A DNA stretch of 64,000 bases, from assembly GCA_041649175.1 (NCBI GenBank), contig JBAZNR010000001.1:322332-386331 (forward strand). The letters run 5' to 3'. Shown in pieces: positions 21,001 to 54,700 of this stretch. Below the pieces are notes generated by a model. That model did not search any database. It was not told where the DNA came from and saw nothing but the letters and a program-made list of their open reading frames with translations. A program made the position numbers and the translations under genes. The first letter of the stretch is position 1. Every line of letters begins with the position of its first letter. Origin of the DNA: Candidatus Omnitrophota bacterium (GTDB lineage Bacteria > Omnitrophota > Gorgyraeia > Zapsychrales > JBAZNR01).

Positions 21001-21719
21001 GTAACAATGATAGACTGGAATTTTCCGTCTTTAATATTGATGCCCAGTGTAAATAAATTGCTTTTCCCGTCCTGATCCTGCTTGGTCTGATAAAAATCAA
21101 TTTTGTAAGCATCAATGACCGCCAAAAGGTTTTCTAAAACTACCCCTTGCCCTAAGCGATGACGCAAAGCGCTTCTTATTTCTACCGTTATATCCGTCAT
21201 GAAGACAACTTTGACCGGACGGATCTTCTTTAAAGCAAGCTCCCAATCAAGTCTTGGATTTATTTTGTAACGTTCCTGGCTGAACAACAGAACCTCGATC
21301 GTATCCCTGAGGATATCTTGATGATCTGATAAATATTTAATGTCTTCTTGAATGATCTCTTCTTCGCTTAAATGGGGTTGAAGGATACGCGTTTTTTCAT
21401 GTTCGAGGAATCCTAAAACAGCGGCCGGGTGGTCTTTCATCAGCTCAAAAACTCTCCAGTGAATAAGCAAAGTCCCTTCGCTTTCGGAGACCATCATCGC
21501 CGGGCCGGGTAAAGCAACGATGACAATGCGAGTTAATTTCTTAGAAACAATAAGATTACCTAAGTATGGAACGATCTCTTCGACCTGCCCGTAGAGCTCT
21601 TCTTCTTCATCATGGGTGAGAAAGCCATTATGGATCTTAGAAATAAAAAACTTGCTCAGGACATTGGCAGATAAAAATACGGTGGGCCTTTCAATGGCGG
21701 CAAACTCGGCCGGATAAGC
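1..21719 (-). CDS. Segment C of the giant ORF: C-terminal side, 3' end beyond the window start. The first in-frame ATG is at 21495-21497, but protein-like sequence begins at 21719.
   Basis: Frame decoded at 57, 181, 541, 781, 2101-2340, 3181-3300, 7381, 8761, 9841, 10021, 10561, 12901, 15361, 20281-20460 and 21481-21719. Confidence 0.6.
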
Positions 21720-24700
21720 CTTAAATCCGCGTAAATCAGGGACAGTCCCCAGCTCAAGTTGGGGACTGTCCCTGTGTAAACGTCGAATTTCTTGTTCATA
21801 TGCATCGCGCCGGTCACGGCCTTCATATGTCCAAGCTAAAGCTGTATTATCTTCAATAAAACGTTTTAAAATATCCGCCAGTGCTTTTAGGGTTTCTTCA
21901 CTTTGAGGGCCCGTGAGCCTAACTAAAATTATTTCCTGAGGATCAATCGATAGGAGAATAAGCCCGATAAGGTTTTGGGCTATATTATCCACTTCTTTAA
22001 TATCTATTAGATTACCGCTGCTAAAAGTAATTATATCGGCCTGGACATTGAAAAGCTTTTCTATGGTTTTAGCTTTCCAGCTGATCATCTCCGATGGAAA
22101 AACATGAAGCCCGCGCGGATTAGTCACCTGCGCGGAAAACGCCACTTTATTGACCACACCGAATATTGTTGGAATAAATATAAACGAAGGCGCAAAGCCG
22201 TGAACGGTCATTCCCTTCACGGGAAGCTTAGAGGACCCGGACATTGTTCGATGAACCGCAAACGCTCCCAAAATCAAGCGTTCGGTTTCCCTAACAACAC
22301 TCATCCATTCTTTTTGATTAATGGCATAAGATAAATACCCGGATACGAGGGCTTTGAGCGCTTCGGCAGATTGCAAGGCTGATTCATAATTCTTATATTC
22401 TATGGCTGATTCGATATCGATCTCTAAGAGTTCAGCGATCCGGTGTGCTAAATCTTCAGCTTTTCGCACGGTATCGGTAAACGGATTATGCGTCAAGTGG
22501 AGGATCGCTTTTTTGCGATCACCGGATAAAAGATAGGCAACAATAAGAATTTCATATTGCATCTCTAGATCATCATCATTGGGATGAAGATTTCCAAGGT
22601 AAGATAAAACATCTATCGCTTCTTGATAATCTCTAACATAAATAAGAGCATTGCCGAAATGAACGCGAGTTGCATTGTCGATCAACTTCATATTAATGTG
22701 GCCTTTGATCAAATAATAAAACTGCGCTATATCTTCAATGATCTTTTGGCCCAACGATGAATAAGGATTGGCTTTTGAATCAAATAAAACGGCCGCCATT
22801 TGATGGATATGCTGATCAACGGTGCTCACCGAGATGAACCCGTGCGGGCTAATGCTCGGCCCATGATCATTGTCGCTGTCAACGACCACGCCCCAAATAC
22901 CCGCCAAGGCGCCAAAAGCAAACATCGGCGCAAAGGCAGCCAAAGAAGCAAGCCGCGTAGAGTTGCTGCTGACTTTTCGTGAACGTAAAAAGTAAGCATG
23001 TTCGTGGCCATGATTGAGGTGTTCGCCTAAAATAATATCGCTAAGCCCAAGTCTTTTGAACAATTGCCCTATAACGGTCGACTCAAGGATCTTTTCTCCG
23101 TTTTTAATAAGCCGAACGGACTGATCTGCCGCTGTCGAATCACTATAGGGATCAATGTATGTAAACGAGGGTGAGACCTGGTTTAAATATTCTACGGTCG
23201 GTTCATTGCCGATCACACCATCTACCATGACACCCGCCGGAAGCTTATCCAACAGCGCTTTTAAGAATTGGGTGGCTAGTTTCTCTCCGGTCAAATGGCC
23301 CATGCTGATATATAAGAAAATTCTCTGCGTCGAACTATACATGTGACCTTTAAACGAGGACGCATCAAGAGGACGGATATTGCCAATATCAAAAATTCCT
23401 CCGGTGTTAAACTCATAGGTCCCAAGAATTTCCGGATTGTCATCCCCTGCTACGAGAGGAAGATTTTCTTGATGTTCAAAAACACCAGCCTTCCAGATAA
23501 TTTCTGCCTTTTGAGATCCGGGATCACTAAAGGTAACAATGAACTGATACCGTTGTCCGTTTTTAGCGCCAACGGCTTCAAAACCACTTAGGCTGGTGAT
23601 CACCGATATAAAGCTAACCATATCCAAATACATTCCCGGCGCAAAGGCGGAAAGAGAACTAGACCCTGAGGATGGGGATTCTCCTGTCTTAAACGGCGCG
23701 AACATGTTGAATTTATCCGCAAAGTCATCACGCAGATCCGTAAGTGATCTGATGTCTCGGTCTATTCCGTAAGCTTTGCTGCGGGCAATAGTAAGCAATT
23801 CGTCAATGATGGGTAAAATAATTCTTGTCTGGTCATGGATATTAATATACTCCCCGACGTGCCCTTGTAATTGCGGGCTGTCCAAGCGATCAAGATAGAT
23901 CTTCTTTAAGGCTTCGCTTAATTCTTCTTGTGACGGCCGAACAAAATTGTAAGCAATTAACTCTACGGCTAAGACTTTACTGATCATTTCGATCCAGCGC
24001 ATCGACTTCATAAAGCGTTTTTCGTTGGAAGGAATTTCGGAGTTTCGGATGTAATCAAGAGAACGGCTTTCTTGGATCACGCCGCTAACAAGCGTGATCA
24101 ATTCCTCAATGCTAAAGCCTAAAATAGCGTTTAATTGAGCGGCGTTCGCGTTTCTATTGGGATCGGTGGAATAAAAATAGTTCGCGCCGAAATTCGCCAT
24201 TATTAGAGAAGCTGTCGCATCCACCGCTTCATAGCGGAAATTGCTCGGCCAAATGCCGTCTTCGGGGCCGATCATGGCCCAAAGTCCGCCGGTCGTTTCG
24301 TTTTGAGTTTCTGAAATAGAATCGATAATGGCGGCGGCCTCTTGTTCACCGCCCAAGGCTTTAAAGGCCGCCGCCATCCCTAAAGTCGCTTCCAGCCAAA
24401 CGGATGTAGTGTCACCCATCTTTTTGGCATAACCGATAAGTTCTACGCCGTTAATGGAAACATGATTGGCATTGATCCAATGAAGCGCGGAAATATAATG
24501 AATGGGGTCAATATTAAGAATCGCGCGCGCCTGATGAAGCGCTAAAATGCTGATATATTGAACGTCTAATTTTTCATCCGTCGCAAAATCAATGATACCG
24601 TCGCGCGACCAAACAGATTCAAAATGTGTGGGGCGCCACATTTTCCCGGTTAACCAGTTAGCCAGTTCGCGGGTTATGTTGCGGTAAGATTCACGGGTTT

Positions 24701-27700
24701 CTTCGGAAATGGAAGTTTGTTGAGATAAAACATTGAATAACATAATAGCGCGGGCATTGTGTTCGGTAGAACTCCAAATGAAAGCTTGTCCTTGAGCATC
24801 TTCCCCGCCGCGCAGGAAATGATAAACAGTTTGCGTTTGAGGATCTGTCCAGTCGCCGTAAAAACGCATCATCCAAGTAGCGGCGCGCTGAGCGGCGTTT
24901 AAGAATTCTTCATTGCCGGTTTTTGTATAAAGATCTACCAAGGCGCGCGCCATCGTTGCCACCGGCCCAACCATACGAAGTTCGCGGACATAATTGACTA
25001 AAATTTCTCCACTTGTCACATCGTAGGCATTGGCCCACCAACCATCCGCGTGTTGAACATTGATAGCGCCTTGAGCCAAACGGCTGGCATTTGCAACATC
25101 ATCCATCGCTAAAAAGGCACCAATTGCCAAAGCATTATTAAAGATCCATGACGCATTGTAAGACGCGTCTGTTTCGGGAACGCCGATAAAGCTGCGGATA
25201 AGATTGGTATCAGAATTAATATTATTCACCAAGAATTGTTTGGCTAAGGCGTTTCGTTCTTCCGGTGTTAAGGGTTCTTCTTCTTGCGGTTCGGTAGGAT
25301 TTTTCTTACTGCAACCTTCTAATAATGGGCCGGAAACAGCCGCTAAGGCCACGATCACCGCGAATTGCTGAAGGAATTTCCGACGAGAGATCGCGCGCAA
25401 AGGCAGCGTTTCCTTGCCGAATAAAATAAATAAGGATTCAAAGATTTTTGAAAGAAGCCCAAATCCGGCAGGGATTATGGCGTTAAGTCTGGTTTTATCT
25501 TGATGCTTTTCTATTTCTTTTTGCTCTTGTTGTTTTTCATAAATACCGCCCGAACCAAAGACTTTATCTCCTAGCTTCTCTAACTTTTCTTGATATTTCT
25601 CTTCTAATTCTCCAAACTTTTCTAATGAGTAATGATCGCTTAAGAATTCTTCAATAAAATTAAAAACTTCTTCGCTAAGATCATGACCCCATTGATTCTT
25701 AACCGAAACCGAAATAACCTGATCTTCTAGGGGCATACTTTCGATATGATCGAAGAATTGCGCAATCGCCATATTGCTTTCGAAAGTATACAAATCGATG
25801 TCGTTAATGGAAATTAGAACTGTTACATGTATGTCAGAGTATATTGCCTCAATCATTTTTTTCATATTCCAAACAGGTGCAAAATGTATCTTATAGACCG
25901 GATGGTACTGCTTGATGATCCAGCCATTGACTTCTCTGGTTTCTGAAATTTGCACTATGCCAAATACCACCGGTGTAAATGCCACAAAACCATTAAGCGC
26001 TGTCGCGGCTGATGCTACACCCACCAGCCACGGAGAGGTTGGTAGCATCGGAATTGCTTCCTGCCGCGACAGCGCTAAAATGACAGATAGTCTTTCTATT
26101 TCTTTTTTATACTCGGCGGATACTTCCCCATCCGCAACTAAAGCATCGGCATCGTTTAAGAATCTTTCAATTAAGGCTAAAATTTCTTCCGTAAATTTAT
26201 TGCCAAATTTATTTTGAACTTTCACGGCTAATACTTGCTCTTCTAAGGGCAATCCTGCTCGAGCGACGAAAAATTCCATTAAACCGGTATGGGCGTTAAT
26301 AAAAGATTTTAAATTAACTCCGCCAAAATAGATCTCAACCGAAATGCCTAAGGTTCTCTCAATAGCGCCAGCTAATTTATTAATATTCGAAACAGGAACG
26401 AAATGAATTCTATGTTTGGATGTTATTTGCCGCTCGACCCAGATTTCTTGAATAGATTGAACTGTTCCAAGAAACAGGAAACTAGACGAAACAAAACTAT
26501 TAAGTTCACTTAAGCTTCGTTCATGATCAATTTCCGATTTCTTTATGATTTCGGCTTTAAGGATCTGCAGAGACTTACTCACTAATTCCCCGAATTTGAA
26601 AATATAAAGGCTCATCCCACCCATGTAATTAAAATCCATCCAATCTTCTTGATCTTCAAACGCAGGATCCTGCCAGGGAAGCCGCTCTAAACGGCCCAAG
26701 AAAAATTCACGGTAAAATTCATCAATACGGATATCTTCAATAAGAATTTCAGGCGCCAGGTTCTTATGAAAAACAAGATTCGTCAATAGATCGTAAGCAA
26801 AAGCATAGGCATCAAAATAACGCTTCCATTGCTTGCGGTGATCTCCCATCGTCCCTAAACCAAGCTCCAGATTTCCCGCCGGAATAAGGCCGGTTGAATA
26901 AGTCACCATTTCTTCATAACTTGGGTCGGGTAAATTTAAGGATCCTGCATCGCCGTGGACAACAACGCCCGTTCCATGAAGAATTAAGGCGATATTCGTC
27001 CGGATGGATAATTGCGTAATCTGATTCCTATTGCTTAAGTTCTCTATACCAGTGACATTGTACGCAACAGCAGGTAATCCGTTCGAAATATGGGTCACGC
27101 CCGAATTCTGGGAGCTTCCTTTGACAATAATCACCACATCAAGGTCATTAGGTAAATTGTTCTGGGCGTGCCAAAGATAGTCGCCAAATACAATGATAAT
27201 AGGATTTTGAATATCCTGTATCGTCAGCCCGTTGTTGCCTTTTTGGGCGATTTGCTCAAGTAAGTCTACTAAATTTCCGGCAACATCTTCTCTCTCTAAT
27301 AATGTCGTTAATCTTTCTTTCATCATAGAAACAGCTTGCGGCTCATTTCTAATAAATGTCCACAGAGGTCGGTGGGAATGGTCAAGGTCAAATAAAATAT
27401 CATCAACTGTTTTTCTGTTATTAATTTCTCTGACAAAACCGAATGCAGACAACCCAAATCCAAAAAACGCGGAAAGTTTTTCTTCTTTCGTATCTTTGAC
27501 AAGAGAAGATGGCGCCGACTTTAAATATTCAATAATGGCCGGCGCTAAAGAGATCGTGCGCGCCGCAGAATCCAAAGAATTAGTTGCCACTACTTCGTTA
27601 AAATATTTTTCAAACTGTTTGAGGCCGGTGGAGAAAACACCGTGCGCCGCTCCGGCGTAAACTTTACTCGCGCCCAAAGCGCGCACCGCTTTAGCGAAAG

Positions 27701-30700
27701 CGTTCATCGTGCCACCGGTTGAGATAATGTCGTCCAAGACAATGATAACTTTTCCGTTAAAATCGATATGTTTGAACCTGTCGTTTAAAACCATCAATAC
27801 ATCTTCGGAACTTAAGCGAATTTTATCCATATGAGCGACTTGCGTATATAGATCCATCCCTAATTGAGATGCCGCTTCCCTAACATAATCATAAACTCCG
27901 TCATCCGGGCCCATCAAAATAATGTCTTCCAAGCGAAGCCCATGTTTCTGAATAAGATTGCGGACGATAAGGCCAAAGGCGTTAATATTAAAAACTTTTA
28001 GGTTTTCCGCTCCTTCAAAGGTGAATTCCCCGCTTTGATCCAAGAAATGAACGTTCACCGTAATGATACGATCGGTGAACTGACTGATCATCGACACAAT
28101 GGCGCGAGCGCTATTGACCGCGCGCGCTTTGGGATAAATAAAACGCAGCTGGTCTTTTTCTTTTAGCGTATAGCTTTGATGCTGACGGGCATAAGCAAAA
28201 TACGGCATAAAGACACCACGCAGCGACGCGTTCAGCACACTTCTTAATTCATGCAGGATCATCATTAGCTCCACGATACCCTTGTTGGTACGCGTCGCGT
28301 GGATCAAAAGATTATTCAATTCTTTTACCTGCGCAGGAATAAGTGTATTCATGTGCCGATGCTCTAGAGTATCAATTTTGATCTCGTGGATTTGCCCCTG
28401 CTCCATTTGCTTAGCTACTTCGCGTTTTAGATCAGCGTGTTCCGGAGTAAAAAGGACCGAATTGATATCGGGAAGGGCTGTTGCTTTTCTTTGCCGTAAA
28501 GGCCGAGATATGTGAACCAGCCGGATCAATTTTTCTCGGATATGATCGATCTTTTCTTCGGCTAATGACCTCTTAGAATAACGAAGCGGACGAATAGTGG
28601 AAAGTTCGCTTTTAATATCAAATACATTGTTATCCATCAGATAAATTTCAGCTTGGGCCGACAAAATATCTAAAATAGCGTCATATTGCCCGGACCGAGC
28701 AGGCAAGAAAACCCTAACCGAGCGCGCGCCAAAATCATTTTTGAGCCCATCGATCATGAAAAGCAGGATAACAATATCCTCGTCGGTCTCTAAGCTTTTG
28801 ATGATGCTAATATCTTTGCCTTCAAAAGCTTCGGAATTTTTGGCAAGAACTTCTACTTCTCCGTCGGGAAATCGGCGGGCGATGATCTCGGAGGAAATGG
28901 ATCCGTAACGCTTGGCTAGCTTAATACGAAGAGCGGCATCTTTATCATTAAAAATAAGATCTATCTTTTTGCTTTCTCCGCCCCGCTGGTTAATAGTATG
29001 TTTCCACTCTTTTATTCTTGACCGGGATGCCAGAGAAACGATCATTCTTTTGTGATTGCTCGGCGCGCGGCCTACCCCTAGCAATCCTTTGATGAGCTTC
29101 GCTAAATATCCGATCACCATACCAAAACTTGGGATAACGGCATTAAGCAAAGAAATGCTTCCGGCATTGTCAGGTGCATTTCGAACAACAGCCGGAGGAT
29201 AAATGCGAATATTTTCCGGCTTTAATTGAGATATCTTCTTTGTTATGACAGGAACAGCGACTTCAAATCCTCCATAAATTTTATAAACGCTTGCAGCGCG
29301 TTCAACAACAGTAGAATTTTGAATAACAAAATACAAAATATCTTCATCTTTAAAATGAGTCACTTCTTTTATTTTAGAAACCAGAAGAACGGAAATCGCA
29401 GCCTGAGCTTTAGTAGAAATTAAATTACTATTGGGCTCTGATGAAGTTCTTCGAGGGGCGCGTGCTTCATCTGGAAAATACACAACATCTACTGAAATTC
29501 TTATCAAAGCCAAAGTTGCCGCGGCTGAAAAGAACGCTGCAGCAAAGCCAAACCTTAAGCCAAAATTATCTAAGGAGAAATAGAACATAACAATAGCAAA
29601 TGCGGGTATCACTAATGCTGCCATTAAAGCCGGTACACCGGGATGTCTAAATATTTTCGTCATCAACGAAGTAACCTTTTTATGTTCTTTGTCTTGAGCG
29701 ACGAAAATCACCATGCCAATTGCAAGTACCACAAGGATAATTTCAATGGCTCCTACCCCTAACAATCCTTTGATGAGCTTCGCTAAATATCCCACCATCA
29801 TGCCAAAGGTGGGAATAACAGCATTCAAGGCTGTTAGCTGAGGCGCTTGCCCGCCATGATCGGCCATTTGTCTTTCCAAGAATTTAGTAAAGTCATAACG
29901 GTATTTGATATGCCGCAACCGGTCAATAAGTTTTCGCTTGCTGGAGTATTTAATATCGGAAGAAATATTAAGATATTCCTTGGCATTATCAGGGCTAATA
30001 ACAAATCCCGGCAAACCATGTTTTTGTAAAATAAGGCTTACGATCAAAGCTCCGGTGCGATGGTTCCCTTCAATAAATAATTGCTGTTGGCTTAAAATCT
30101 GCACATAAACCGCTGCGGCCTTCGCGTAAACAGAAAAATACGAACGGCTTTGATATTTTTCCCACACAGCTTCAATACCCTTACCAAAAGATCTCTTTAC
30201 CGCCTGCACATATTGATTTCGCTCTAAGCGGACGGCAAAAACATTTCCCATCAACACCAAGTGATTCAATTCCAGAAAATCTTCTCTACTGATTTCTCTA
30301 TTCTTTCCAAGTAGACTGTTGACACACGCATAACCTAAAATAATTCTATCAATTGTCTCCTGTTCGGGAAGTTCGCGCGGCGTATCAAGCTGGTGATTAA
30401 GCTCGGAAAATCCTTCTAAGAATTCCTGCAGTGATCGGCGTACCGTATCCATATCCATTGCCAAGTCGGGAGTTTCTAATCTCGTGGCGGCAAGTAATTT
30501 ATCTCGAGATAAATTTTTTCGTTGATGGCGTAAAGCTTTTGTTATAGCTACCACCGGCGCGATCATGGGATAAATGATCACATACCAAATCTTGTGGCGC
30601 AGATGTTCGGCCTTGATCATAAATCCGTTCTTATTGACCATCCAAGAATAGAATAAGGAGAAGAACTGCGTGGAAATTCCATCGACCACAACTTGAATAG

Positions 30701-33700
30701 CCGGATGAGAAGCCTGCACGGCGTAGGTGCGGATAATGGACGGCAAGCGCGTCATCCAAAACGCTTCATGTTGTTTCTCTTGGGCTAAAGGATTTTGATT
30801 GACCGTGTCTTTCTTGGCATGTTTAACGACCGCGGCATAAATAAATGTCCGGACTCTTACTACCGCCATCAGGCCAATAATGCGAAGCGCGGTGGCGGCA
30901 TAAAATTCCGCGCCTTTATCTAAGGTAACATCAAATTGCGCGTGAATGAATTGAACGATCTCAAAAACAGCAATAACGGCAACACTTAAAATCGGAGCTA
31001 AGAAAAATGCTTTGGCGATGGCCGGTATTTCTTTTTTGCCTATTTTCTTTCTTTGAACAATCTGGCCGAAGGTAAACACGGTGACCATAAATACTGATAC
31101 CGCCAAGATCGACGCGATAATTCCTGCTCCTGCAACACTCGTTGAAACCATCGCGTTTAAAAACATCATACTAAGGGCTGAAACAAAGGCCATTAAAAAT
31201 CCACCCGGAACAGCCAATAAAACTTGTTTTTTATTGATGCCATGCCCGGCCATCCATTGGCCTAAAATATCCGTAACAACAACGAATTGCGTAAAGATGA
31301 TGATATTGGCGATGAAAACTCCGATGAGACGGCTTAAAAGATGGGGCGCGTTAAATCCGTAGACAGTTGCGGCAAAAATCCCCAAAATGATAAAACTAAC
31401 GGCAAATTTCTTACCTAACGACAACGGAATTTGACTTTTGGGCTTAGGAATAAAGTTGCTGTCTTGTTGTACCGGTTCGCTCGCGCTGTTGACCAAACCA
31501 AACAAGGCAAAAGGTAAAATAAACCCAAAGGTAAACGCATTTAATTCTTGTTCTGCGACATCTAAACGTTTACTTTCCGGATAAGGTAACAAATCAGGCG
31601 TTTCTCCACGCCTAACTTTTTCTTGAGTTTCTTTCCACCACTTTGCCGTCACCAAATCGCCGTGTACCGTCATAAAATGATCTTTATATCGTTCCGGAAC
31701 AGAAAACTGTATTAGCTCGGAAGGAAAGACATCTCCATCGGAAACTGATATCCATTCGCTCTCATCCATCATGCTTTCCCAATCATCTTGTGGTTTCGGT
31801 TTGTCTCTAAAATTATAATTAAGAATTGAGTCAATTTCGTCATAATCATAACAGCAGACGCGTCCATGAGAAGTCACGCCAAAATTTTTGCTAAAATAAT
31901 CACCCATAAAGATTCCCATTTCGGCTAGATCTTTAACACAATACCCATAATCAATAACGGCTCGTCGGGCTGATTCGGGATCTGCTTCTTCAAGGAAAAT
32001 ATTTAGCGGAGTAATTCTGCGTTCAATATAGACGTGATGGATAACCACATAGTCGCCGCTTAACGTAACAACATTTCCGGCTGTTTTAAGCAACTTTTCT
32101 AAAAGTTCGCTCGGAAATCTATGACGCCTAAAACGCAAGTGTTCGAATTCCTGTGTATCTAAAAGCCTCCCTCCGCGTTCGTGACGGAAAACAAAATTGT
32201 AACGGTCTTTGATCCTTTCTCGCGTCATGTCTTCTTTAGCCAAAAAGCTCTTGATCAGTTTAAATACCATATTGATCTTATTGAGGGCCGCAACGGTCAT
32301 GGACATCCCCTCGATCCCGCGGGCGATCACAAAGGGTTCATTGGTTGTATCAAGATGGTTAATAAGCTCCCGATAAAGAACGGTTTTTCCATGCTTGTTG
32401 TAACCGATAGATATGTAAAGTTCGGAAACTCGTTTAAGTGGCATAATAGATTTAAGGAATGTGATCAACGCCACATGGTCACTAATATCAACATGGAAAT
32501 AGGAACGTGTAAAACTAAAAACGATGCTGGCATCCGTCTGATTAAGTAAAACAGCATCGACCGCAATGCCTGCCCCTGTGTTGACCAACGGTAAAACAAA
32601 CGGGACAGTCATAAAATCTTCTTCCGGAGTTCCGACAATGATACGCCCGATCATATAGGCGCGCTTGTCGCGATAGAATAGCGGCTTTAAGATCTCAACG
32701 CGAGCGATCTGAGAATCGCCCCAAACATTGATAAGATGATGCGTGATTTCTTCGGCAACAGCCTTTGAGTTTCTTTCCAAATCTTTAAAGCCAACAGAAA
32801 ATGCATGCTCCGAAAGAATGCGCCGGACCATCTCTTGTGTTGTTTCCGTGCGGTGATATACAGTGTAGATACCATCCTTATCGCTCGTATACTCAACATT
32901 GGAATGAACAAATTCAATAGACGGATTGACGCCTTCGGTGGTAAATATTTTACGCGTAATCGAATTAAAGAATGTTTCCGCAAATTCTCCGTCACGATAG
33001 TCTTCTAACATTCTAAATGTGATCATTTGGTTATATTTGACTTTCATCGTCGACCATAATGTTCTATCGTATTTATTCTCTCCTAGTATTCCGCTCCATT
33101 GTGAACCGGCCAATGAAGCAACCGTTTCGCTGATGATCTTTCCATAAAGATCAATACGATCCATTTTGTCTTGCTGGTCACCCTGCCAATCTCTTTGTTC
33201 AAACCGTGTTTTCGCGCGCAAGGTGATCTCTCTAAACTCACGATGATAACGGTCAAAGGCGTCATAGATCATTTGGGCGCTTCTTTGCGCTAAGACGTCC
33301 CGGCTTTCGCTATTTGCCTGCACCGTCGCCCAGAACCCAAACGGCATCAACAATCCCGCGAAACCGTTTAAAGCTTCTTCAGGATCTTGTTCATTAGCAT
33401 TTCCATTGATCGGACGTAAAGCATTATGCCAGCCTTCGGTTTTCTCGCTGTCGACACCCACCACCATAAGCATATTGCCCAGCACATAAAGGCTGGTATC
33501 GGTTTTTATACCGACCGCTTCGCTGGTGATCTTCAGATGGACTCCATTATCGCTAAGCCTGCCTAATTCCTTAAGGATCGGATGAGAAACCATCAGGGCA
33601 TCTTTCATTAACCGGAGAGCGAGAGGAAAAATAATATAACGCGCTAACGGTGTCCTAAAATAATCATAAATATTTAATTTTCCGAAAGTTTCGATAAGCC

Positions 33701-45700: not shown

Positions 45701-48700
45701 TCTTGATTTTTTGCCGGCTGCCGTCATATCGCGGGAACAATAGATCTTTGGCTAATCCGGTAAAATGGTTTATGGTAGGTTCAACGATAACCAAACGCCC
45801 TAACTCCGGAATTTCTTCCAAAAGCGCTGAAACTTCCCAATCGGTTTGCCCCGGGCCGATCTCAAGCAGTGTTTTTTCGGAGAATTGAACTGATTTACTC
45901 TTTAAAAGAGCAACGCTGTCTCTGACGGCGTCCCTTATGTCAGCACGAGTAACATGCCAATGGCGCTGAACCCGATTAAAAGGAACTTGATCAAAGATGT
46001 GAACATATTTGCGATGCCCCGCAATGATCCTATTTTCTCGAGGAGTAATAACCGTATGGGGATTTTCAAAACGTATTTCATAAGTCCAGTGGGGAGAAAG
46101 ACGATTTAAATACTCCATCGCTCTGTCGCGGCTGACCAGCCAGGCTTCTTTAGGGAAATTGCTCGTAGATGTATTGACAACTTCCCCAAACAATACCGGC
46201 AACACAAACGGCGCAAAACCAAATCCGGCAAAGGCGGATAATGTTTCGCGCGAGTCTGTTGAGCGCGTCCTGTCATCGGAGACGCGGAACACAAGCTCAT
46301 AACCTATCTCGCCTGTTCTTAAAAGCAGGTCACGAACAACCAATGTATCGACATCAACGGCAATGATCGGTTTTAAATCGCGAAAAACTAATCTCTTGTT
46401 AATGCTGCGTCCAATGGCGGCCGATATAATTTTATAAGAAGAACGGGCCATTTCGCCGTCAAAGAATTGAAATATTTCCATTGTGACACGTTCTTCTTCT
46501 TGTTGGGCTAAACCACTTTCCAAAGATCCAGAAACAAAGTTGACGGATAAGCCTTCACTTGTTAAGGCCATCAACTCAGCTATATCGCTATCCGCCTGCG
46601 GGTCTATAGCGCGAGATAATTTATCAAAATCAATCTTTATAATCCCCAGCGGATACTGATTGATCATAACCAAACCATATTCGCCATGAGTTATCCGGCT
46701 TTCAAAAAGTTCGTCTAAAAGACGTTGGTCTCCGGCCGTAACATGTTGGAATAAGGCAAAGCGAATTTGCTGAGATTCGAATGGAAATACAATGGCCTGA
46801 TCGGTCAAGTAACGTAAGGCAAATTCTTTTCCAAAAAGCTCTCTGCTGGGCGAGCCTGCGCTAGGATTAACACTACCAAACAATACCGGCACAAACCCAA
46901 ATCCGACAAAGGCGGGAAGCGCTTGGCTTCCCGATAAATATTCATACGTTTCACGGCCGGTTTCGTGTTCAACAAACTTAAACGGCAAGTCATCAAGAAC
47001 AAAAGCTCCGGGCTCTTTTTTCATCATCAGGCTAACCCATCCTTGAAAATTATTATCAGTATCAATGCGAATAATATTTTCCGGTCTTAAACGATACTGG
47101 ATTTCGTTGATCACCATAGATTGGGCAAGGCGGCCTGAAGTATTTTGAGACGTAAAATCAATTTGATTAAATCCACTAAATAAATATCCTCCCGGACGAA
47201 GTAAATGATAGAGGGCTCTGTTGACCGCAATTTGATCGGGGATATAGGATAAAACACAATATCCCATAATGATCAAATCAAAGTTTCCTTCAATTCTTTC
47301 GAGGTTTTTTCCGTAACTTATATCCATCACATAATGATGCTGATGTAAACGGGCAAGAAGGTCATCCATATTAGAAAATGGATGAGAAAAATAATCGTAC
47401 CGTTGATGCTCAAAATATTCTTTTAAATGGGCAAGATCAAATAAAAGCCCTTCTTCCAGATTGATGGAATGATATTCAAAATCATACCCTTCTTCTAAAA
47501 GTTCAATGATACTAACCCCGCGCCCAACGCCAACGATAAGAACTTTAGGCATTGTTCCTTGTTCTCGATGTTGCCGTAATAACATTGTCAGAGCCCCCGT
47601 AAACCAACGCTTTTTGTCAGAATAAAGCTCGTGCAAAGACGCAACCCCGCGGCTCACCGCGTCTTCGCCGATCCGCTTCGCATAATTCTCAGGGACAGGT
47701 ATTTGACGATAAGATGCTAGTGTATTCCCCATGCTATCAACCAATCCAATGATTACCGGCACAAATCCAAATCCGGCGAAGGCGGAAAGTACGCCAACAG
47801 TTCCAGCGGTTGTCCGAGCGCCTTCAAAAGCCGCCGCGCGCAATTTATCCGCGTCGAGCTTGCGCAGATCAATATAGATCTTTCCGTATGTTTCTTTGTG
47901 ATCGGTTTTTCTGATCCGGTAAAGCCTTCCCGACTTCTTCCATAAAGAAAGGGTTTCAGCAAAGAACCTGGCGCCATCGGGCAAGGTCAGAGTTGAGCTA
48001 ACAGATGTAAAGCCTCGGCCTTTGACCCAGAAAAGAAGAATAGCTAAAGCGGTTTCGGAATACTGCGCCCGTTGATCTTTGTTCATAATACTGAAGATCA
48101 ACCTCGTAATACGTGTTCCCTTAGATTCAATGGCGAACACAATAGCGCCCTTGTCGGTTGTTATTTGCCCGTGAAGAATATTATCGCTGTTTTCTTCGAT
48201 ATGAAGCGAATCAACGATATCCTCTAAAGATGTCCCTGAAATCCACTCTCGGTATAAAGCCTTTTCTAATTCAAAGAGGTTTGGCGTAGCGGCAACCAGA
48301 AGGCTCGACACACCAAATCCGGCGAAAGCATGAACGGACACAGAGGCTTGTGAACCCGAAGAAACCGTTTTCTCGACGGGTAAAATAAATAATCCTTCCA
48401 AGCGCTTTACAACATCATTCATCGTTTTGGGCTTACGTTTTTTCCGATTTTCCTGCGACATCTGTTGGATAAGCAAGGAAATCCCGCTAATGCCGGCAAT
48501 GTCATCATCCATTTCCAGGACGAAATCGATCACTTTCGCGAAACTATAAATGTCAGATGCAAAAAATCTTTTGGTTTCCGGCGCGGAAAAACCATTTGAT
48601 CCACCTTTCATCGGCCGGCCCTTGCGTACGGACAAACCAAAATCAACGATCATCACTTCTTTAGCTGCGTTCACTAGAATATTGTCCGGCTTAATGTCGC

Positions 48701-51700
48701 CATGAACCCATCCGGCTTTATGGATACGCGCCAAGATCTTAGCGGCTTTGATGAGAATATCCATTTTGTCTTTGGCGCTAAAGTTAAGGAAAAGTTCTGA
48801 ATCTAAATCGTAGCCGTTAGAAATTCCTTTAAGCTTGATCCAGAAATTCCCTGATTTATCATTGCCCGCCGAAATAATTTGCGGAATTCCCTCTTTAACA
48901 CCACGCCTGCTTAGATCACGTAAGACAAGAACTTCATCTGTATTAAGATCGTGGGCTACACCGGAATTCGCGGTTACCTTATAAAAGACAGCTGAATCTT
49001 GCGGGTCTTGATAAATATTAGAGAAGCTGCCATTGCCCAAAACAATTGCAACGGGAATATCTTGCCCTGCGGAAATTTGAGCAGAAGTTGCTTCGGTCCC
49101 AATGCCGGTTTTTGGTAATAGGCTTTCATCGAATACGACTTGCCCTGGTAAAGCTGGGACATCGCCCCAGATAGACACATCCAATAGATGATCATCAGAA
49201 ATAGAAGAGGCCGCTTGATGATTAAACTTTTTCCACCAGCCACGGTAGGCGAAAAGTCTCAAGCGGCCTTTTAAACCAATCCAAGATAATTGTAAATTTA
49301 AACTCAAGAATCTTAATCTGCTTTGAACAGATTCAAACCATTTCTTGATCTCTTGACGATAAATCCATCCAAAAACCGCTATGCCGATACCAGGAATAAA
49401 AACCAACAGATGAAGCGGCACTAAAAAGACAAAGAGCTGATTTTCATGTTCACGATCTGTGCTAGCAGCCGCTAATCCATTCGGAGAGCCTGCTGGTAAG
49501 CGCCTGCCTATATTTTCTTCATCAGCAACAAAAGCAACCACACCACCTTGCTGATCTCTAACCGTCCTAAACCCGGAATACTCTTCTTGACCTGTCAGAT
49601 CAATCCAAGATTGCCATCCATCAAACCGCTTGATCCCCTGAGCACCGAAATTAGGACGATAAAAATTCCTGAGCAGCCCTTCCGTAGTCCATATGCTCGC
49701 CGTCGTTGCTTGATGACGTTCTCGGCCAATGGTCAGCGCCGCGGCTATAAGGACCCGGCTTAAAATACGTAATCCTTGTTTTCCTTTATTGCGATAATCA
49801 GGATGAACGAAAAGCCCGTCTCCTTCTTGAGAATACCTTAAGTCATTTTCCCGAAGGAAAATAATGCCATAACGCCTAAGGTTTTTCTCTGCTTCTTTAT
49901 TAAAACCGATATTATTAGAATTCCTATCAGCCGCTTCAAACAACATTTTACGTCCTCTATCCTTAGATGACGGATAGACCGCAAAATCCAAATACGCGAT
50001 GTGACGTTTTTTGCTTAGATCAAAAGTGTCTAATAAATAGTAGGCATTGCTCACCGTTGACACCACAGCAGCGCGCAAAGTAAAGAGAATTGTATTTTTC
50101 CCTGAACGATAAACCGTCCATCCTTGCTTGATAAGTTCGTCAAAATTTAAAACACCCTCCGGCCTTTTAACCATACCCAAGGCCACCAACCCAAATACCG
50201 GAAAGATCATGCTATGGAGAAGCTGCATTTTTTTGGCCTCGGAAACACCTTGATCGGACTCAAGCCGGTAGAAGTAAATCCCGGAAGCCTGGCTGGAAAG
50301 ACCGAGAGAAACGGTGTGGCGCCCGATAGAACGTATTCCAAGGTCAACATGCTGAACTTCGCGGCCTAAAACATCAAAGACCTTTAAAACAATTTTACGC
50401 GGCCGGTCTAATTCAAATTCAATAGTTGTTTGTCCGTTGAACGGATTGGGATAATTTTGTTTTAATTGGAAGCTTTGTGCTATCGGATGGAGAGGGTCGA
50501 CCGCTGTCGTCCCGGAAAGAGAATCAGCCATATTGATAATATCGTCTGCGGTCATTTCGTCGGTTACAGAAAACGCGGTCGCATCAAAATGAGTATCCAG
50601 CCACTGACGATCGTCATCGGAAATCGGACGCGTGTGCACATTAATGCCGATAAAATCATACCCTGTTGAGAACGGGCCGATCAAAGCCACGTTAAAGCGA
50701 TAGACTGTATTTCCGTCAATAACAACATAATTTCTTTCAACCGTATACGTGGTATCTAATCCGGCAACCGCGCTATCAAAGGCGGCATATGTCGCATCAA
50801 GATCGACATTCGTTAAAGAAGCCATCGTATTGTCGATCCAGTTATTGTATTGCGTGTATTCTGTATACGCAGGTATTTCAAAAGAAGCAACTCCTTCAGA
50901 TTGAAACATCAGAGCAAGTAATTGCGGGCTAAGATCGCGCTCTTCATCGTGAAAAGCAACCCAGGTTGTATCAACCCCAATACCATTTTGGCCCTGCCCG
51001 GCAAAAGCAGGAGTGAATGCAGTCGGAGAATTCGGCGGAGGAGGAATGTAAAGATATTCTAAAAGAAGTCCTTGCAGATCAAGATAATAATCCCTTAGAC
51101 GAAAATACATATAACGCTCACGCGTTGTCACGTCAAGCTCGTCCAAGGTGTGACGAGGTTCTTTAGTGACAACAGGCGGAGCGCGCGGATCATAAATTTC
51201 ATATTGTCCGTTAGATAAGATCTTAATATCACCAGAAGCAAGTGCCGCGCGCCAAGGCAAGACAACAAAGAATGCCATCATCATGCCGACAAATAACGTC
51301 ATAAATTTTCGCACAATGGGGCGCGTGATCGCTTGATTGATAGACGTTATGACCCCTTTGGGATCAGAAGGCAACATTTGCGCCCTTGAAAACGTTTTCT
51401 TATTTTGAAAAATAAATCCATCTTTTTTAAGATGTGAATAATAGAGCCCGGCAAAAACCGCTAATCCAACGATGGGAACAAAGATAAAAGGCGTGATGGA
51501 TAATAATTTATCTGTTCTTGTTCCGCCGATATGGTTGAGCGCTTTAAATTCTTGAGGCCGTTCGATATCAACGGTAACAATACCTTCGATATTTCTCACC
51601 AACGTATCAACAATTTCTTTATTGGTCACATAGTTAAATCCGGATAATCTAAAGACCAAAGTCCCTTCGCTGGGCTCACCGACCGGAACATCAACGCTTT

Positions 51701-54700
51701 CCACGTGCGCGACCAGCGGATTATCCTTAGCCACTAAAAGTTCTCCGATGCGCTTGGCAATGCCCGGAATATTTTTTACTAAAACTTTAACCGTAATACT
51801 AATACGTCCTGCCACATAGGCATAAACCGTAGCGGCGTCAACTAGCCCAAGGCCGATCGCTAAATGCAACTCATCGCGGTCAAATTGCGAAAAGCGCTTC
51901 GGAGAAAAACGAGCCGGAAGAAGAGATATGGACTTATCCGGGCCTACGAAAAGGCCCATCTTTTCTGTAAATTCATTGATCAGCCTATAGGTCGCTTCTG
52001 TCATTCCTACCTTAGAAAATTCTTCTTTCAAGCGCCGTTCGCCCTCACGAATAAGAGCTAATTTGAATTCATCGGCAGTCATTTTTCTTTTCTGCCCCTT
52101 GGTCATAAATTTCCGGACAAAATCTTCATTTTCAAACCTTGTTATTAACTCTAAGGATAGCCGTGTGCGCAAAAGCTTGGCCAGCGAAATAAGCCCTTTG
52201 TCTTTGATATTCTTGGCAGAAATAGCAAAACCGGTGATCTTATGGCTAAGCGCATTTTGAAAGATCATACCTGTTTCTAATGGAGTATTTTCCAAAATAG
52301 CGCGAGATAGCGGTGTCGCCGGAGAAACCGCATCCAATAAGGCATCATCAAAGATCATAAAACCTTGATACCCTTCATCAAGGCCAAGTTCGGGATAATA
52401 CGCCAGATCAAGCGCGACAGCTCCTTGGGGAAGCTCAGTCACCAAAAGGCTTGATCCGGATTTTCGGTCTCTTTCCTTTAGGAATCCGACATAAATATTC
52501 CCGTTTAATGAGTTGTAGATCAGGTTCAAATTATCCCTCGGGTCTTCGGTGAGCATAATAGCGTCGGAGATCAGTTCTTGATTGATCTTTTGGCTTTTTA
52601 AAAACCCTTCTAATTTAAATAACCAATGAGGCTTGACCGCTTCACTGCCGATGCCATAACGATAGCGCCGGTAATCCTGATGGCTCATGATCTGCAGCTC
52701 CCAAGGACGGATGCGCATATCCTCTTTAAATTCCACCACGTCCGTAAAATCAACGTGAATAGCGTAATAACCTTTTCGTTTAAACTCCGCATTCTCGGCT
52801 TTGCCTTTTAGCTCCCAACTTAATTTTCCAAAGGCTTTATCAGGGTCACTTACTAAAACCATGACCCCTAAAAGATCGGGCAGTTCGGCTAAAGCACTAC
52901 GGCTTGAGCGGGAAGAATGGATCTTTTCATAAATAGCGGCAATGCTTTTAGCTCGCACCATAACGATCACGCTATCATCGCCATCTTCCCTGATAAGAGC
53001 CTCGAAACGTCTTTTCACTTCGTCTAAAATAGCTTCAATATCGCCATAATTTTCCACGCCTAAATAGTCGGCAACAGCCGCCTTTGTTTCCTGATATTCT
53101 TTAGGCATGGTGATCATCATGACTCTGTTTTGCAAACCAATGACCATGCGGGGAAAATCAATACGGTCGGCCAGCGGAATAAAGATGTGTTCTATTTTCT
53201 TAAGCATCGCTTCTTTTTTATTCTTAGCATCTTCAGCCTGGCGGCTGTCTTTGCGGGCTTCGGCTTCTTTTTCCCTAACGGCGGCCAAACCGGCAGAAAT
53301 AATAAGATCGGCCGCCGCTAACATCAAGACCCTGATCCGGCCGTCGGTCAATCGGATGACCATATTCATATAATATTGGACAGCCCATCTTCCTGCCAGC
53401 GCGCGGACCACTTGATTTAAATACGGAAGATTGATGATCTCACGGCTGCGCTTTATGGTAGGGCCGATCACTTTTAGATCTTCTGCCCTTGAGGGGAATT
53501 GGGCGGTTAACTGTTCTATGACCTCACGTCGGGTCCTTTCCGAAATATGCCAAGAATGAAGAAGCCCGGCAATGATCGTCGTATCCACGCCTAGCCAACG
53601 GGCTAAAACATAAGCCACATCTAATCCGTGCTGCATAATGCCTTCGGCGGTGTTGAAGCGTTCATCTAAAGAAGAAAGAGGAGTCGCTTTTAGTTTTTCT
53701 AATACAATGCGATAAGCTTGTTCAATGATGCGCGCATCAGCATTAGGATAATTGTTTTTAAAGGCACCGGTAACGTCGGATAATTCCATATTTCCTTCCC
53801 CATACGGAAAATCCGCCACAATGCCGAAAACCGACAAACCAAAAGGAGAGAAGATAAATGAGCTGAGCTTCGTTTCTCCTGTTTCTGCTATTTCAGCCGG
53901 CTTAGATACTTCTTCGACCAGTTTTATCGGCGTAACAGCTGCCATCGTCTCCACAGGCTTATGGTTCGGCTTTCCTGACCTTTTTGTCATACTGCGATCG
54001 GTAAAGTGAACAACGATCAAATAAACGATCATCCCGCCGATCATAGTCGCTAAGAACTTTGTCGTGCTCACATGATAGGAGCGGGCATACGCAGCTGCAA
54101 AGGCGGGAGAAGTAAGAATAAAGCTTAAAATTAAGGCGATCATTCCACTCGGTAAAATAGCGTTAAGGACTGTTTCGTTACTTTCTCCATCGACGGCGGA
54201 ATTATTTTCCCCTGAGATTTTGATCTGATAAACTTCGCTGTTTTCCATGCTTAAGAAAGGACCCATATCTTGGCTGACAAGCTTAATTCCCGGGAAACGC
54301 GTTAGCAAAAGATGCCTGGTCGCCTCGGTGGTGACCACCATCGTAAAAATTCCTCCCTTAAAATGAGTCTTTACAAAATCCGCAAAGAAGTCGAAGACGC
54401 GCGACGCGAATCCTTGTCCGGCAAGGCTTCTATGAAGAGCAATGCTGCCGGAATCAATGTCGATCCGCCCGCTATCATGCCGCTTAACACTGAACTCTCT
54501 TAAGAATAAAACACTGCCATCACCTTCATAAACATGGCTGTAATAATGAACAGCGTTTTCTGTCTCGAGGTAGCGATTTCGATTAACATTCGATCTCCCT
54601 CTGCCTTGATACGGCTCAAAAAGAGCAGATTTTTTAACAACAATGAAGCGATAGCTTGTAATTTCATCCCGCTCATCGATAACAGAAGCATAAACATATT

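Follow-up and report, generated by a model that had tools for sequence, protein, structure and literature searches.

A giant reading frame of Candidatus Omnitrophota as a chain of protein-sized modules joined by a conserved hydrophobic junction, a candidate site of membrane anchoring or processing

How can one reading frame combine cytoplasmic-type enzymes, membrane segments and secretion-type signals? The question is raised by a 64,000-nucleotide stretch of DNA from a Candidatus Omnitrophota bacterium (contig JBAZNR010000001.1, positions 322,332 to 386,331; hereafter the window), the minus strand of which holds a frame (3..63998) of 21,332 codons with 0 stops that is open at both ends, while each of the remaining five frames carries about 1,000 to 1,650 stops. 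As the frame is free of stops of any kind, an alternative genetic code and non-coding DNA were ruled out. The listing of open reading frames (ORFs) of at least 150 amino acids (aa) shows one ORF in the window and omits the giant frame, which is open at both ends. Residues are numbered along this frame such that aa i occupies window bases 63999-3i to 64001-3i of the minus strand. A previous sequence-only reading had described positions 22965-53825 (aa 3392-13678) as a topological paradox, in which a single intact protein could not satisfy all localisations and the product must be processed into pieces or be transcribed or translated modularly. The co-occurrence itself is confirmed by the stop-free frame together with matches to profile hidden Markov models (HMMs), and the module calls mostly did not collapse under HMM analysis; the incompatibility and the modular expression fared less well, as discussed below.

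About 40 protein-sized modules follow one another in frame along the giant gene. Judged jointly with the whole explanation developed here, the window is probably an internal piece of a giant gene (>64 kb) of the 'multi-enzyme' giant-protein kind. Giant ORFs are documented across the phylum Omnitrophota and include a 'multi-enzyme metabolic cluster' class, recognized by an ORF of at least 10,000 aa, many Pfam families and transmembrane (TM)-like segments at about 1 per 370 aa (Nielsen & Lui, 2026, bioRxiv 10.64898/2026.06.07.730766; West-Roberts et al., 2023, bioRxiv 10.1101/2023.11.21.568195; Seymour et al., 2023, PMC10066038). The present ORF resembles them in being far longer than 10,000 aa, in mostly orphan sequence tiled by many unrelated families (more than 25 Pfam families across the chain, none dominant by copy number), in sharing with them PF08241, PF02518, PF00583, PF08323, Lysine_decarbox, TPR and HD, and in its 58 TM-like segments (1 per 368 aa by the Kyte-Doolittle scale, a crude predictor, with about five of them being buried enzyme cores). 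The translation has an ordinary protein composition except for very low Cys, and the G+C content at third codon positions is uniform along the frame (0.37-0.48).

What joins the modules is a recurrent segment of about 17 aa, in which a polar linker is followed by L-N-x-F, three to five hydrophobic residues, F-x-P, three to four residues, F/W-G-x-V and again a polar linker, with F, G and V near-invariant and N at position 2 conserved; an example of a sequence spanning it is …SEDLNAFLLPSFFAFFGFVR. An iterated profile HMM recovers 33 copies, against 0 in each of 10 local-composition shuffles and 2 in the reversed sequence, and seven more variants, found by regular expression (regex) or by eye, bring the total to about 40. 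Cutting the chain at 40 junctions yields modules with a median of 472 aa (range 87-1,681 aa). Both limits of the span 22965-53825 fall at or beside such motifs, position 53825 lying inside 53817..53867 and position 22965 lying 22 nt from 22884..22943. The junctions are:

62718..62774, minus: junction motif, aa 409-427 (HMM)
61773..61820, minus: junction motif, aa 727-742 (HMM)
60423..60467, minus: junction motif, aa 1178-1192 (HMM)
58641..58691, minus: junction motif, aa 1770-1786 (HMM)
56760..56813, minus: junction motif, aa 2396-2413 (HMM)
55536..55586, minus: junction motif, aa 2805-2821 (HMM, weak)
54858..54896, minus: junction-like variant, aa 3035-3047 (regex only)
54129..54167, minus: junction-like variant, aa 3278-3290 (regex only)
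53817..53867, minus: junction motif, aa 3378-3394 (HMM)
51444..51506, minus: junction-like variant, aa 4165-4185 (regex only)
50184..50228, minus: junction-like variant MQLLHSMIFPVFGLV, directly after the type IX secretion system (T9SS) C-terminal sorting domain (CTD), aa 4591-4605 (regex and sequence)
49362..49415, minus: junction-like variant upstream of the kinase, aa 4862-4879 (regex only)
47739..47789, minus: junction motif, aa 5404-5420 (HMM)
46869..46919, minus: junction motif, aa 5694-5710 (HMM)
46179..46241, minus: junction motif, aa 5920-5940 (HMM)
45360..45419, minus: junction motif, aa 6194-6213 (HMM)
44544..44591, minus: junction motif, aa 6470-6485 (HMM)
42105..42152, minus: junction motif, 12 aa past the LOG C-terminus equivalent, aa 7283-7298 (HMM and profile coordinates)
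39918..39974, minus: junction motif, aa 8009-8027 (HMM)
39075..39131, minus: junction motif, ends 2 aa before the Met1 equivalent of cofactor-independent phosphoglycerate mutase (iPGM), aa 8290-8308 (HMM and alignment)
37353..37400, minus: junction motif, 5 linker residues past the iPGM C-terminus equivalent, aa 8867-8882 (HMM and alignment)
35442..35492, minus: junction motif, aa 9503-9519 (HMM)
33321..33371, minus: junction motif, ends 2 aa before the AceK Met1 equivalent, aa 10210-10226 (HMM and profile coordinates)
31491..31544, minus: junction motif, starts at the AceK C-terminus equivalent, aa 10819-10836 (HMM and profile coordinates)
29103..29147, minus: junction-like variant, aa 11618-11632 (regex only)
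27432..27476, minus: junction motif, 12 aa past the C-terminus equivalent of phosphoribosyl pyrophosphate (PRPP) synthetase, aa 12175-12189 (HMM)
26460..26504, minus: junction motif, aa 12499-12513 (HMM)
25953..25997, minus: junction motif, aa 12668-12682 (HMM)
25413..25487, minus: degenerate junction-like segment, about 7 aa before the twin-arginine (Tat) signal, aa 12838-12862 (by eye)
22884..22943, minus: junction motif, aa 13686-13705 (HMM)
22152..22205, minus: junction motif, ends 2 aa before the HPr Met1 equivalent, aa 13932-13949 (HMM)
20376..20423, minus: junction motif, aa 14526-14541 (HMM)
17514..17561, minus: junction motif, aa 15480-15495 (HMM)
16563..16613, minus: junction motif, aa 15796-15812 (HMM)
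13398..13457, minus: junction motif, aa 16848-16867 (HMM)
8298..8354, minus: junction motif, aa 18549-18567 (HMM)
5175..5219, minus: junction motif, aa 19594-19608 (HMM)
3990..4028, minus: junction motif, aa 19991-20003 (HMM)
2016..2066, minus: junction motif, aa 20645-20661 (HMM)
546..599, minus: junction motif, aa 21134-21151 (HMM)

At identical junction residues the third codon position agrees with a frequency of 0.29, and tandem DNA repeats are nearly absent, which shows that the junction is maintained by selection at the protein level; an origin by recent DNA duplication was ruled out on the same grounds. In composition (F 19%, G 14%, P 7%) the junctions are much richer in Phe, Gly and Pro than other TM-like segments. 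Known boundary chemistries were set aside: the residue after the conserved Gly is usually aliphatic and the one before it F or W rather than G, at variance with autoproteolysis of the SEA type (G/SVVV) or Nup98 type and with C39 double-glycine sites, and the NPGP of 2A-like skipping is absent. None of the NCBIfam sorting-signal models matched any of the 33 junction copies.

The units between the junctions were identified by searching the giant translation with Pfam and NCBIfam profiles, the scores being quoted against family cut-offs. Those for which a family model permits a test of completeness are:

42195..43328, minus: LOG / TIGR00730-type nucleotide hydrolase domains, aa 6891-7268 (PF03641 E 1.6e-37; TIGR00730 115 bits vs 96)
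37416..39068, minus: iPGM module, complete, aa 8311-8861 (TIGR01307 425.6 bits vs 330.65, aa 8328-8854)
31545..33314, minus: AceK (isocitrate dehydrogenase kinase/phosphatase) module, complete, aa 10229-10818 (NF002804 equivalog 605 bits vs 488)
27513..28457, minus: PRPP synthetase (ribose-phosphate diphosphokinase) module, aa 11848-12162 (NF002095 and TIGR01251; PF13793, PF00156, PF14572)
21864..22136, minus: HPr phosphocarrier domain, aa 13955-14045 (PF00381 23.2 bits vs 23)

The assignments of AceK, iPGM and PRPP synthetase made in the sequence-only reading thus held (for PRPP synthetase, which straddles two scan chunks, NF002095 and TIGR01251 gave 119+95 and 112+84 bits). As judged from profile and structure alignments, the testable modules are complete proteins running from the equivalent of Met1 to the natural C-terminus: in iPGM, AceK, HPr, PRPP synthetase, LOG and the CTD-bearing module the profile ends are reached next to junctions. 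Met1-Ser2 of free-standing iPGMs aligns with Thr-Lys 8311-8312, two residues past the last Val of the preceding junction, while their C-terminal …SLIEFK aligns up to aa 8861, six residues ahead of the next one. The AceK module covers positions 6-578 of the 582-position profile and is set off from the junctions on either side by 2 and 0 residues; HPr starts two residues and asparaginase about ten residues after a junction, and PRPP synthetase and LOG each end about 12 residues ahead of one. In an AlphaFold (AF2) model the iPGM core reaches a predicted local distance difference test (pLDDT) score of about 90 with both junctions outside the fold, the C-terminal one as an isolated low-confidence helix; a single-sequence AlphaFold model of aa 5380-5980 (pLDDT 34) was uninformative.

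The catalytic apparatus of these enzymes is likewise preserved. The iPGM module aligns end to end with the structure PDB 3nvl (E 3e-167) and retains the catalytic Ser motif and the metal ligands (GNSEVGH, DG, DMVGH, ADHGN). AceK, with Pfam matches over aa 10234-10816 (E 9e-93 and 2e-85), aligns with E. coli AceK (PDB 3eps) over 566 aa at E 2e-100, keeps the kinase motifs GD..KNFGV and YDYDE, and is 42-45% identical to standalone AceK proteins. Compared with their closest free-standing relatives, 179 of 193 near-invariant columns are retained in iPGM and 49 of 53 in AceK, so by this sequence measure both modules are for the most part intact, substitutions being in modest excess. Standalone enzymes of about 542 aa share about 65% identity with the iPGM module, the named ones mostly from Candidatus Omnitrophota, a further likeness to the giants of this phylum. 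Together with these relatives the module is much nearer to trypanosomatid-type structures (3nvl, 3igy; E 1e-167 to 1e-164) than to the Bacillus type (1ejj; E 1e-100).

Protein-sized modules might suggest that each has its own promoter or translation start within the frame and is expressed by itself, as the sequence-only reading had offered; nothing else favours this possibility. The codons equivalent to Met1 are not starts (for iPGM it is ACA, Thr), and a Shine-Dalgarno sequence with ATG within 40 aa after a junction occurs in 0 of 33 cases (0.8 expected), or in 2 of 33 when GTG and TTG are admitted (2.9 expected), which is no enrichment. Promoter-like sites (47 in the window vs 40.6±5.4 in shuffles) and terminator-like sites (26 vs 22.5±5.7) remain at shuffle level, Rfam elements and tRNAs are absent from the window, and a frame open over 64 kb is not needed by separate genes. 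Modular transcription or translation is therefore unsupported and, in our judgement, the most improbable of the explanations weighed here.

Where the modules lie with respect to the membrane is best approached from the run of enzymes in the middle of the chain, for which the following features are relevant in addition to those above:

48438..49040, minus: Ser/Thr protein kinase domain, aa 4987-5187 (PF00069 E 5.6e-10; PF07714)
46920..47738, minus: methyltransferase module, aa 5421-5693 (PF08242 E 6e-12)
40095..40511, minus: histidine-kinase-type ATPase domain (HATPase_c), aa 7830-7968 (PF02518 E 1.7e-12)
34827..35405, minus: asparaginase N-terminal domain, aa 9532-9724 (PF00710 E 8e-18 and 1e-13)
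29490..31406, minus: multi-pass hydrophobic region with about 10 TM-like segments, aa 10865-11503 (Kyte-Doolittle scan)

A hydrophobic segment lies about 105 aa upstream of the kinase domain, in agreement with the kinase plus TM segment proposed before. The multi-pass modules and membrane enzymes of the sequence-only reading stand in part: the hydrophobic cluster at aa 10865-11503 is present, but it matches no Pfam or NCBIfam model, and no membrane-enzyme family is found in multi-pass regions. From the kinase (aa 4987) to the end of AceK (aa 10818), nothing but junctions, single or double, and one strong TM pair stands between eleven domains that depend on ATP, S-adenosylmethionine (SAM) or similar cofactors. 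Were every junction a membrane span, several of the enzymes would end up outside, where their cofactors are absent; therefore, the junctions probably do not cross the membrane. If they do not and the TM segments form hairpins, every enzyme module can lie on the cytoplasmic side. The flanks of junctions are net acidic on both sides, whereas those of other TM-like segments are net basic. That junctions might be too short for a span was considered and dropped, as their apolar runs do not differ from those of other TM-like segments (16 vs 17 aa, p = 0.31); length hence does not help to decide, and it is parity logic and flank charges that speak for non-spanning junctions.

The same evidence bears on the contrary view that junctions are true spans and the chain weaves through the membrane, many enzymes facing outward to act on or in an attached prey or host, like the multi-effector array of a MARTX toxin. 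The apolar runs, as long as those of other TM-like segments, would suit it, as would published topology predictions that place much giant-protein content outside and a phylum thought to be episymbiotic or predatory; AceK, the RelA/SpoT-like region, kinases, the LOG-type nucleosidase and a sigma factor could conceivably reprogram a bacterial victim. Yet ATP-, SAM- and PRPP-dependent enzymes would be without cofactors outside the cell, the acidic flanks on both sides give no positive-inside signal, no translocation or autoprocessing domain is seen in the window, and such localisations have been called 'highly unlikely' (West-Roberts et al., 2023, bioRxiv 10.1101/2023.11.21.568195). We regard this view as very unlikely, if slightly less so than modular expression.

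In the explanation that we prefer, modules are linked in one chain by the conserved junction (L-N-x-F, an F/G/P-rich core with a central Pro, F-G-x-V), most copies of which would not cross the membrane but dip into it or be bound by a common partner, so that runs of ATP-, SAM- and PRPP-dependent enzymes would stay on the cytoplasmic face. The claim that a single intact protein is unable to satisfy all localisations is then too strong: a polytopic chain can hold loops on both sides, export-type modules have their own signal-like segments, and cofactor-dependent enzymes lie on one face if junctions are non-spanning, hence the topological paradox is not forced.

The export-type signals inside the chain are three:

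51234..51335, minus: internal Sec-type signal-peptide-like segment RPIVRKF-MTLFVGMMMAFFVVL-PWRAALA/SG, aa 4222-4255 (read from the sequence)
50220..50453, minus: internal T9SS type-A CTD, aa 4516-4593 (PF18962 36.1 bits vs 27, profile 2-72 of 75; TIGR04183 35.6 vs 23)
25311..25397, minus: Tat signal with lipobox-like end, SRRKFLQQFAVIVALAAVSGPLLEGC/S, aa 12868-12896 (TIGR01409 20.9 bits vs 16.7, E 3e-4)

The T9SS CTD had been proposed at 50200-50459, and the Por_Secre_tail match (aa 4516-4590, window 50229-50453) bears this out; it extends to the usual last residues …KKMQLL, where the junction-like segment LLHSMIFPVFGLV begins. About 260 aa upstream lies the Sec-like segment with an A-x-A site, for which signal-model searches gave no match. 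In both respects the module resembles type-A cargo of the T9SS; it differs in that CTD and signal lie inside a chain of more than 21,000 aa, the CTD being followed by more than 16,000 further codons rather than by the polypeptide C-terminus. The lipoprotein signal suggested at 25300-25370 is present as a signal, although of Tat type: in its context ISRRKFLQQFAVIVALAAVSGPLLEGC/SKKNPTEP it contains SRRKFL and an h-region, the only RR plus h-region of its kind in the ORF, while its LEGC end, with Glu at -2, fails the canonical lipobox [LVI][ASTVI][GAS]C, the sole match of which in the ORF is ISSC at aa 6198. The Tat signal, too, is internal, about seven residues after the degenerate junction. Thus, N-terminal signals and a C-terminal sorting domain adjoin junctions as if junctions were protein termini.

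Each export-type module begins with its own signal-like hydrophobic segment (Sec-like at aa 4222-4255, Tat-like at aa 12868-12896) and has a hydrophobic junction after it, whose run of 20-24 apolar residues could bring the chain back across the membrane. The few export-type modules, one with the Sec-like signal followed by the T9SS-type CTD and one with the Tat/lipobox-like signal followed by a dark module, would be carried across by these signals of their own. The dark stretch that may represent the exported module downstream of the Tat-like signal lies within 1,200 aa (aa 12150-13349, window 23952-27551, minus strand) that have no homologue among 5.8 billion proteins. As a family hint, this segment holds only a sub-threshold GH127-like match at aa 13016-13059.

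The junctions would most likely also be the sites where the chain is cut into individual proteins. Processing is favoured because the conservation of the junction is residue-specific and because N-terminal signals and the CTD adjoin junctions; this part of the sequence-only reading is upheld as plausible, if tentatively and at a little below an even chance, and a protease domain is missing from the window. PRPP synthetase normally works as a hexamer, HPr as a shuttle and sigma factors as mobile factors, which we count in favour of release.

The strongest competitor keeps the chain intact, as a membrane-tethered scaffold in which the Sec-, Tat- and CTD-like signals serve as start- or stop-transfer segments or are leftovers of fused genes. 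It would explain the missing protease domain, the parity of hydrophobic segments permits a consistent topology for it, nearly half of the published Omnitrophota giants read as 'membrane-anchored cytoplasmic-domain' proteins, and peptides from one giant ORF have been detected in V. archaeovorus. Against it, the conservation of junction residues (near-invariant F, G and V, with N at position 2) exceeds what a generic anchor would need, a Tat signal above cut-off and a CTD kept to its last residues would be useless within an intact chain, and several modules, the three just named among them, are of kinds that usually act as free oligomers or mobile factors. An intact scaffold thus appears rather unlikely to us, though far from as improbable as outward weaving.

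Several points weigh against the explanation by non-spanning and cleaved junctions. No peptidase domain (C39, S8, rhomboid or signal peptidase) was detected among the 21,332 aa in the Pfam and NCBIfam scans, and the gene ends and neighbouring genes lie beyond the window. As run lengths are alike, some or all junctions could span the membrane, and published DeepTMHMM surveys of similar giants put much of the enzyme content outside. In a search of 1.84 billion representative proteins the junction profile did not turn up a further carrier with several copies, a weak negative as very long proteins are perhaps outside that library; its sole match was an irrelevant repeat protein, P0041. The motif is hence without comparative support and without a known protease-substrate system. 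Recent fusions could have left the Sec, Tat and CTD signals behind as fossils. Moreover, an internal Tat motif can act within an intact polytopic protein, as in the Rieske protein of Streptomyces, so that such signals do not require cleavage.

The question of cleavage and topology, shared by the present chain, has already been raised for Omnitrophota giants, with the caution that predicted localisations are unreliable, and most full-length giants carry SecA_DEAD and/or C39/S8 peptidase domains (West-Roberts et al., 2023, bioRxiv 10.1101/2023.11.21.568195). In contrast, SecA_DEAD, like C39 and S8, is absent from the 21,332 aa of the window, although the gene extends past it and the domain may lie beyond. 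The conserved junction, the complete modules and the signals abutting junctions set the chain apart as well; in the papers on Omnitrophota giant proteins consulted, an L-N-x-F…F-G-x-V junction, modules placed end to end and internal signals or a CTD at junctions are undescribed. A literature search returned no paper pairing Omnitrophota with 'polyprotein'.

Polyproteins of the flavivirus type encode many complete proteins in one ORF, with internal signal and stop-transfer segments, mixed topology and recurrent sequences at the boundaries. The giant frame is alike in its complete proteins, internal signals and recurrent junctions at unit boundaries, and unlike in being a bacterial chromosomal gene, about ten times longer, in which no protease domain is seen, the junction is hydrophobic and F/G/P-rich rather than a short protease site, and cleavage is a proposal. 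MARTX toxins are arrays of unrelated enzymatic modules, released at inter-module linkers, with glycine-rich repeats, a cysteine protease domain and type I secretion. The likeness consists in a large bacterial protein with unrelated enzymatic modules; the last three of these MARTX features were not found here, and the modules are housekeeping-type bacterial enzymes instead of eukaryote-directed effectors. A putative bacterial polyprotein, with at least about 40 complete proteins in one chain of more than 21,000 aa, cut at L-N-x-F…F-G-x-V and each piece directed to its own compartment, is a possibility that we hold with less confidence than processing at junctions as such. Its pieces would comprise enzymes of housekeeping type, regulators, a sigma factor, and secreted proteins bearing Sec, Tat and CTD signals of their own. 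The same reserve applies jointly to its extension, in which the pieces would form a pre-packaged enzyme set that acts at an attached prey cell or is delivered to it.

Giant genes of Omnitrophota fill a sizeable share of very small genomes, and whether their product is one molecule or many is undecided in the field, published topology predictions being in conflict. With the junction motif, a single gene yields about 40 boundaries at exact positions that can be tested, candidate sites for membrane anchoring or cutting; the units between them are complete proteins, some of which bring sorting signals of their own. Non-spanning junctions would offer a simple reason why TM predictors put ATP-dependent enzymes outside; processing, if true, would amount to a polyprotein strategy at a scale unknown in cellular organisms.

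Most modules are mutually unrelated in module-versus-module blastp; the exceptions are four methyltransferases and one tandem pair. The methyltransferase modules at aa 5421-5693, 6214-6469, 8028-8289 and 8883-9502 (window 46920-47738, 44592-45359, 39132-39917 and 35493-37352, minus strand) share 31-40% identity almost from junction to junction, which suggests an ancient duplication of whole units of module plus junction. The tandem pair, two adjacent modules of about 155 aa without family at aa 12514-12837 (window 25488-26459, minus strand), shows 33% mutual identity, with one junction in between. A linker-like stretch of 30 aa (…VAGLGN.PA…) occurs twice with 70% identity in otherwise unrelated modules, at window 63381-63470 and 60498-60587 (minus strand; about aa 178-207 and 1139-1168).

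The remaining assigned domains lie towards the two ends of the chain:

63678..63923, minus: GNAT acetyltransferase domain, aa 26-107 (PF00583 E 5e-10)
52398..53636, minus: divergent RelA/SpoT-like region, aa 3455-3867 (TIGR00691 E 5e-10, 38 bits vs cut-off 499; PF13328 HD_4 20 bits vs 27.2)
14709..16337, minus: TPR repeat region, aa 15888-16430 (several TPR families)
9402..10124, minus: inositol-monophosphatase/CysQ-type domain, aa 17959-18199 (PF00459 E 1e-19)
3207..3806, minus: sigma-70/extracytoplasmic function (ECF)-type domain, aa 20065-20264 (TIGR02937 68.2 bits vs 42.9)

The RelA/SpoT call of the sequence-only reading survives as a weak, divergent resemblance at aa 3455-3867, whose score falls short of the family level. 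A second weak RelA/SpoT-type HD region (window 10337-10777, minus strand, aa 17742-17888; TIGR00691 E 1e-7) is located just upstream of the inositol-monophosphatase-like domain. The sigma-70 domain, by its score, is real but sits outside 22965-53825, where it had been counted. A further sigma region-4 match (PF04545 E 6e-8) follows at aa 20468-20517 (window 2450-2599, minus strand), and a weaker one is seen at aa 16981-17023; a transcription factor inside a membrane-associated giant chain would be odd unless released.

The low Cys content noted above amounts to 24 residues in 21,332 aa (0.11%), with 0.4-0.5% in the iPGM and AceK modules vs about 0.7% in their free-standing relatives. The sole notable tandem DNA repeat, at window 61016-61073, consists of 3.2 in-frame copies of an 18-nt unit with 80% matches. 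The GC skew of the plus strand is negative in nearly all 2-kb bins of window 1-64000 and the cumulative skew drops steadily, so that the coding minus strand has more G than C along its whole length; one long transcription unit or leading-strand placement would be expected to give this pattern.

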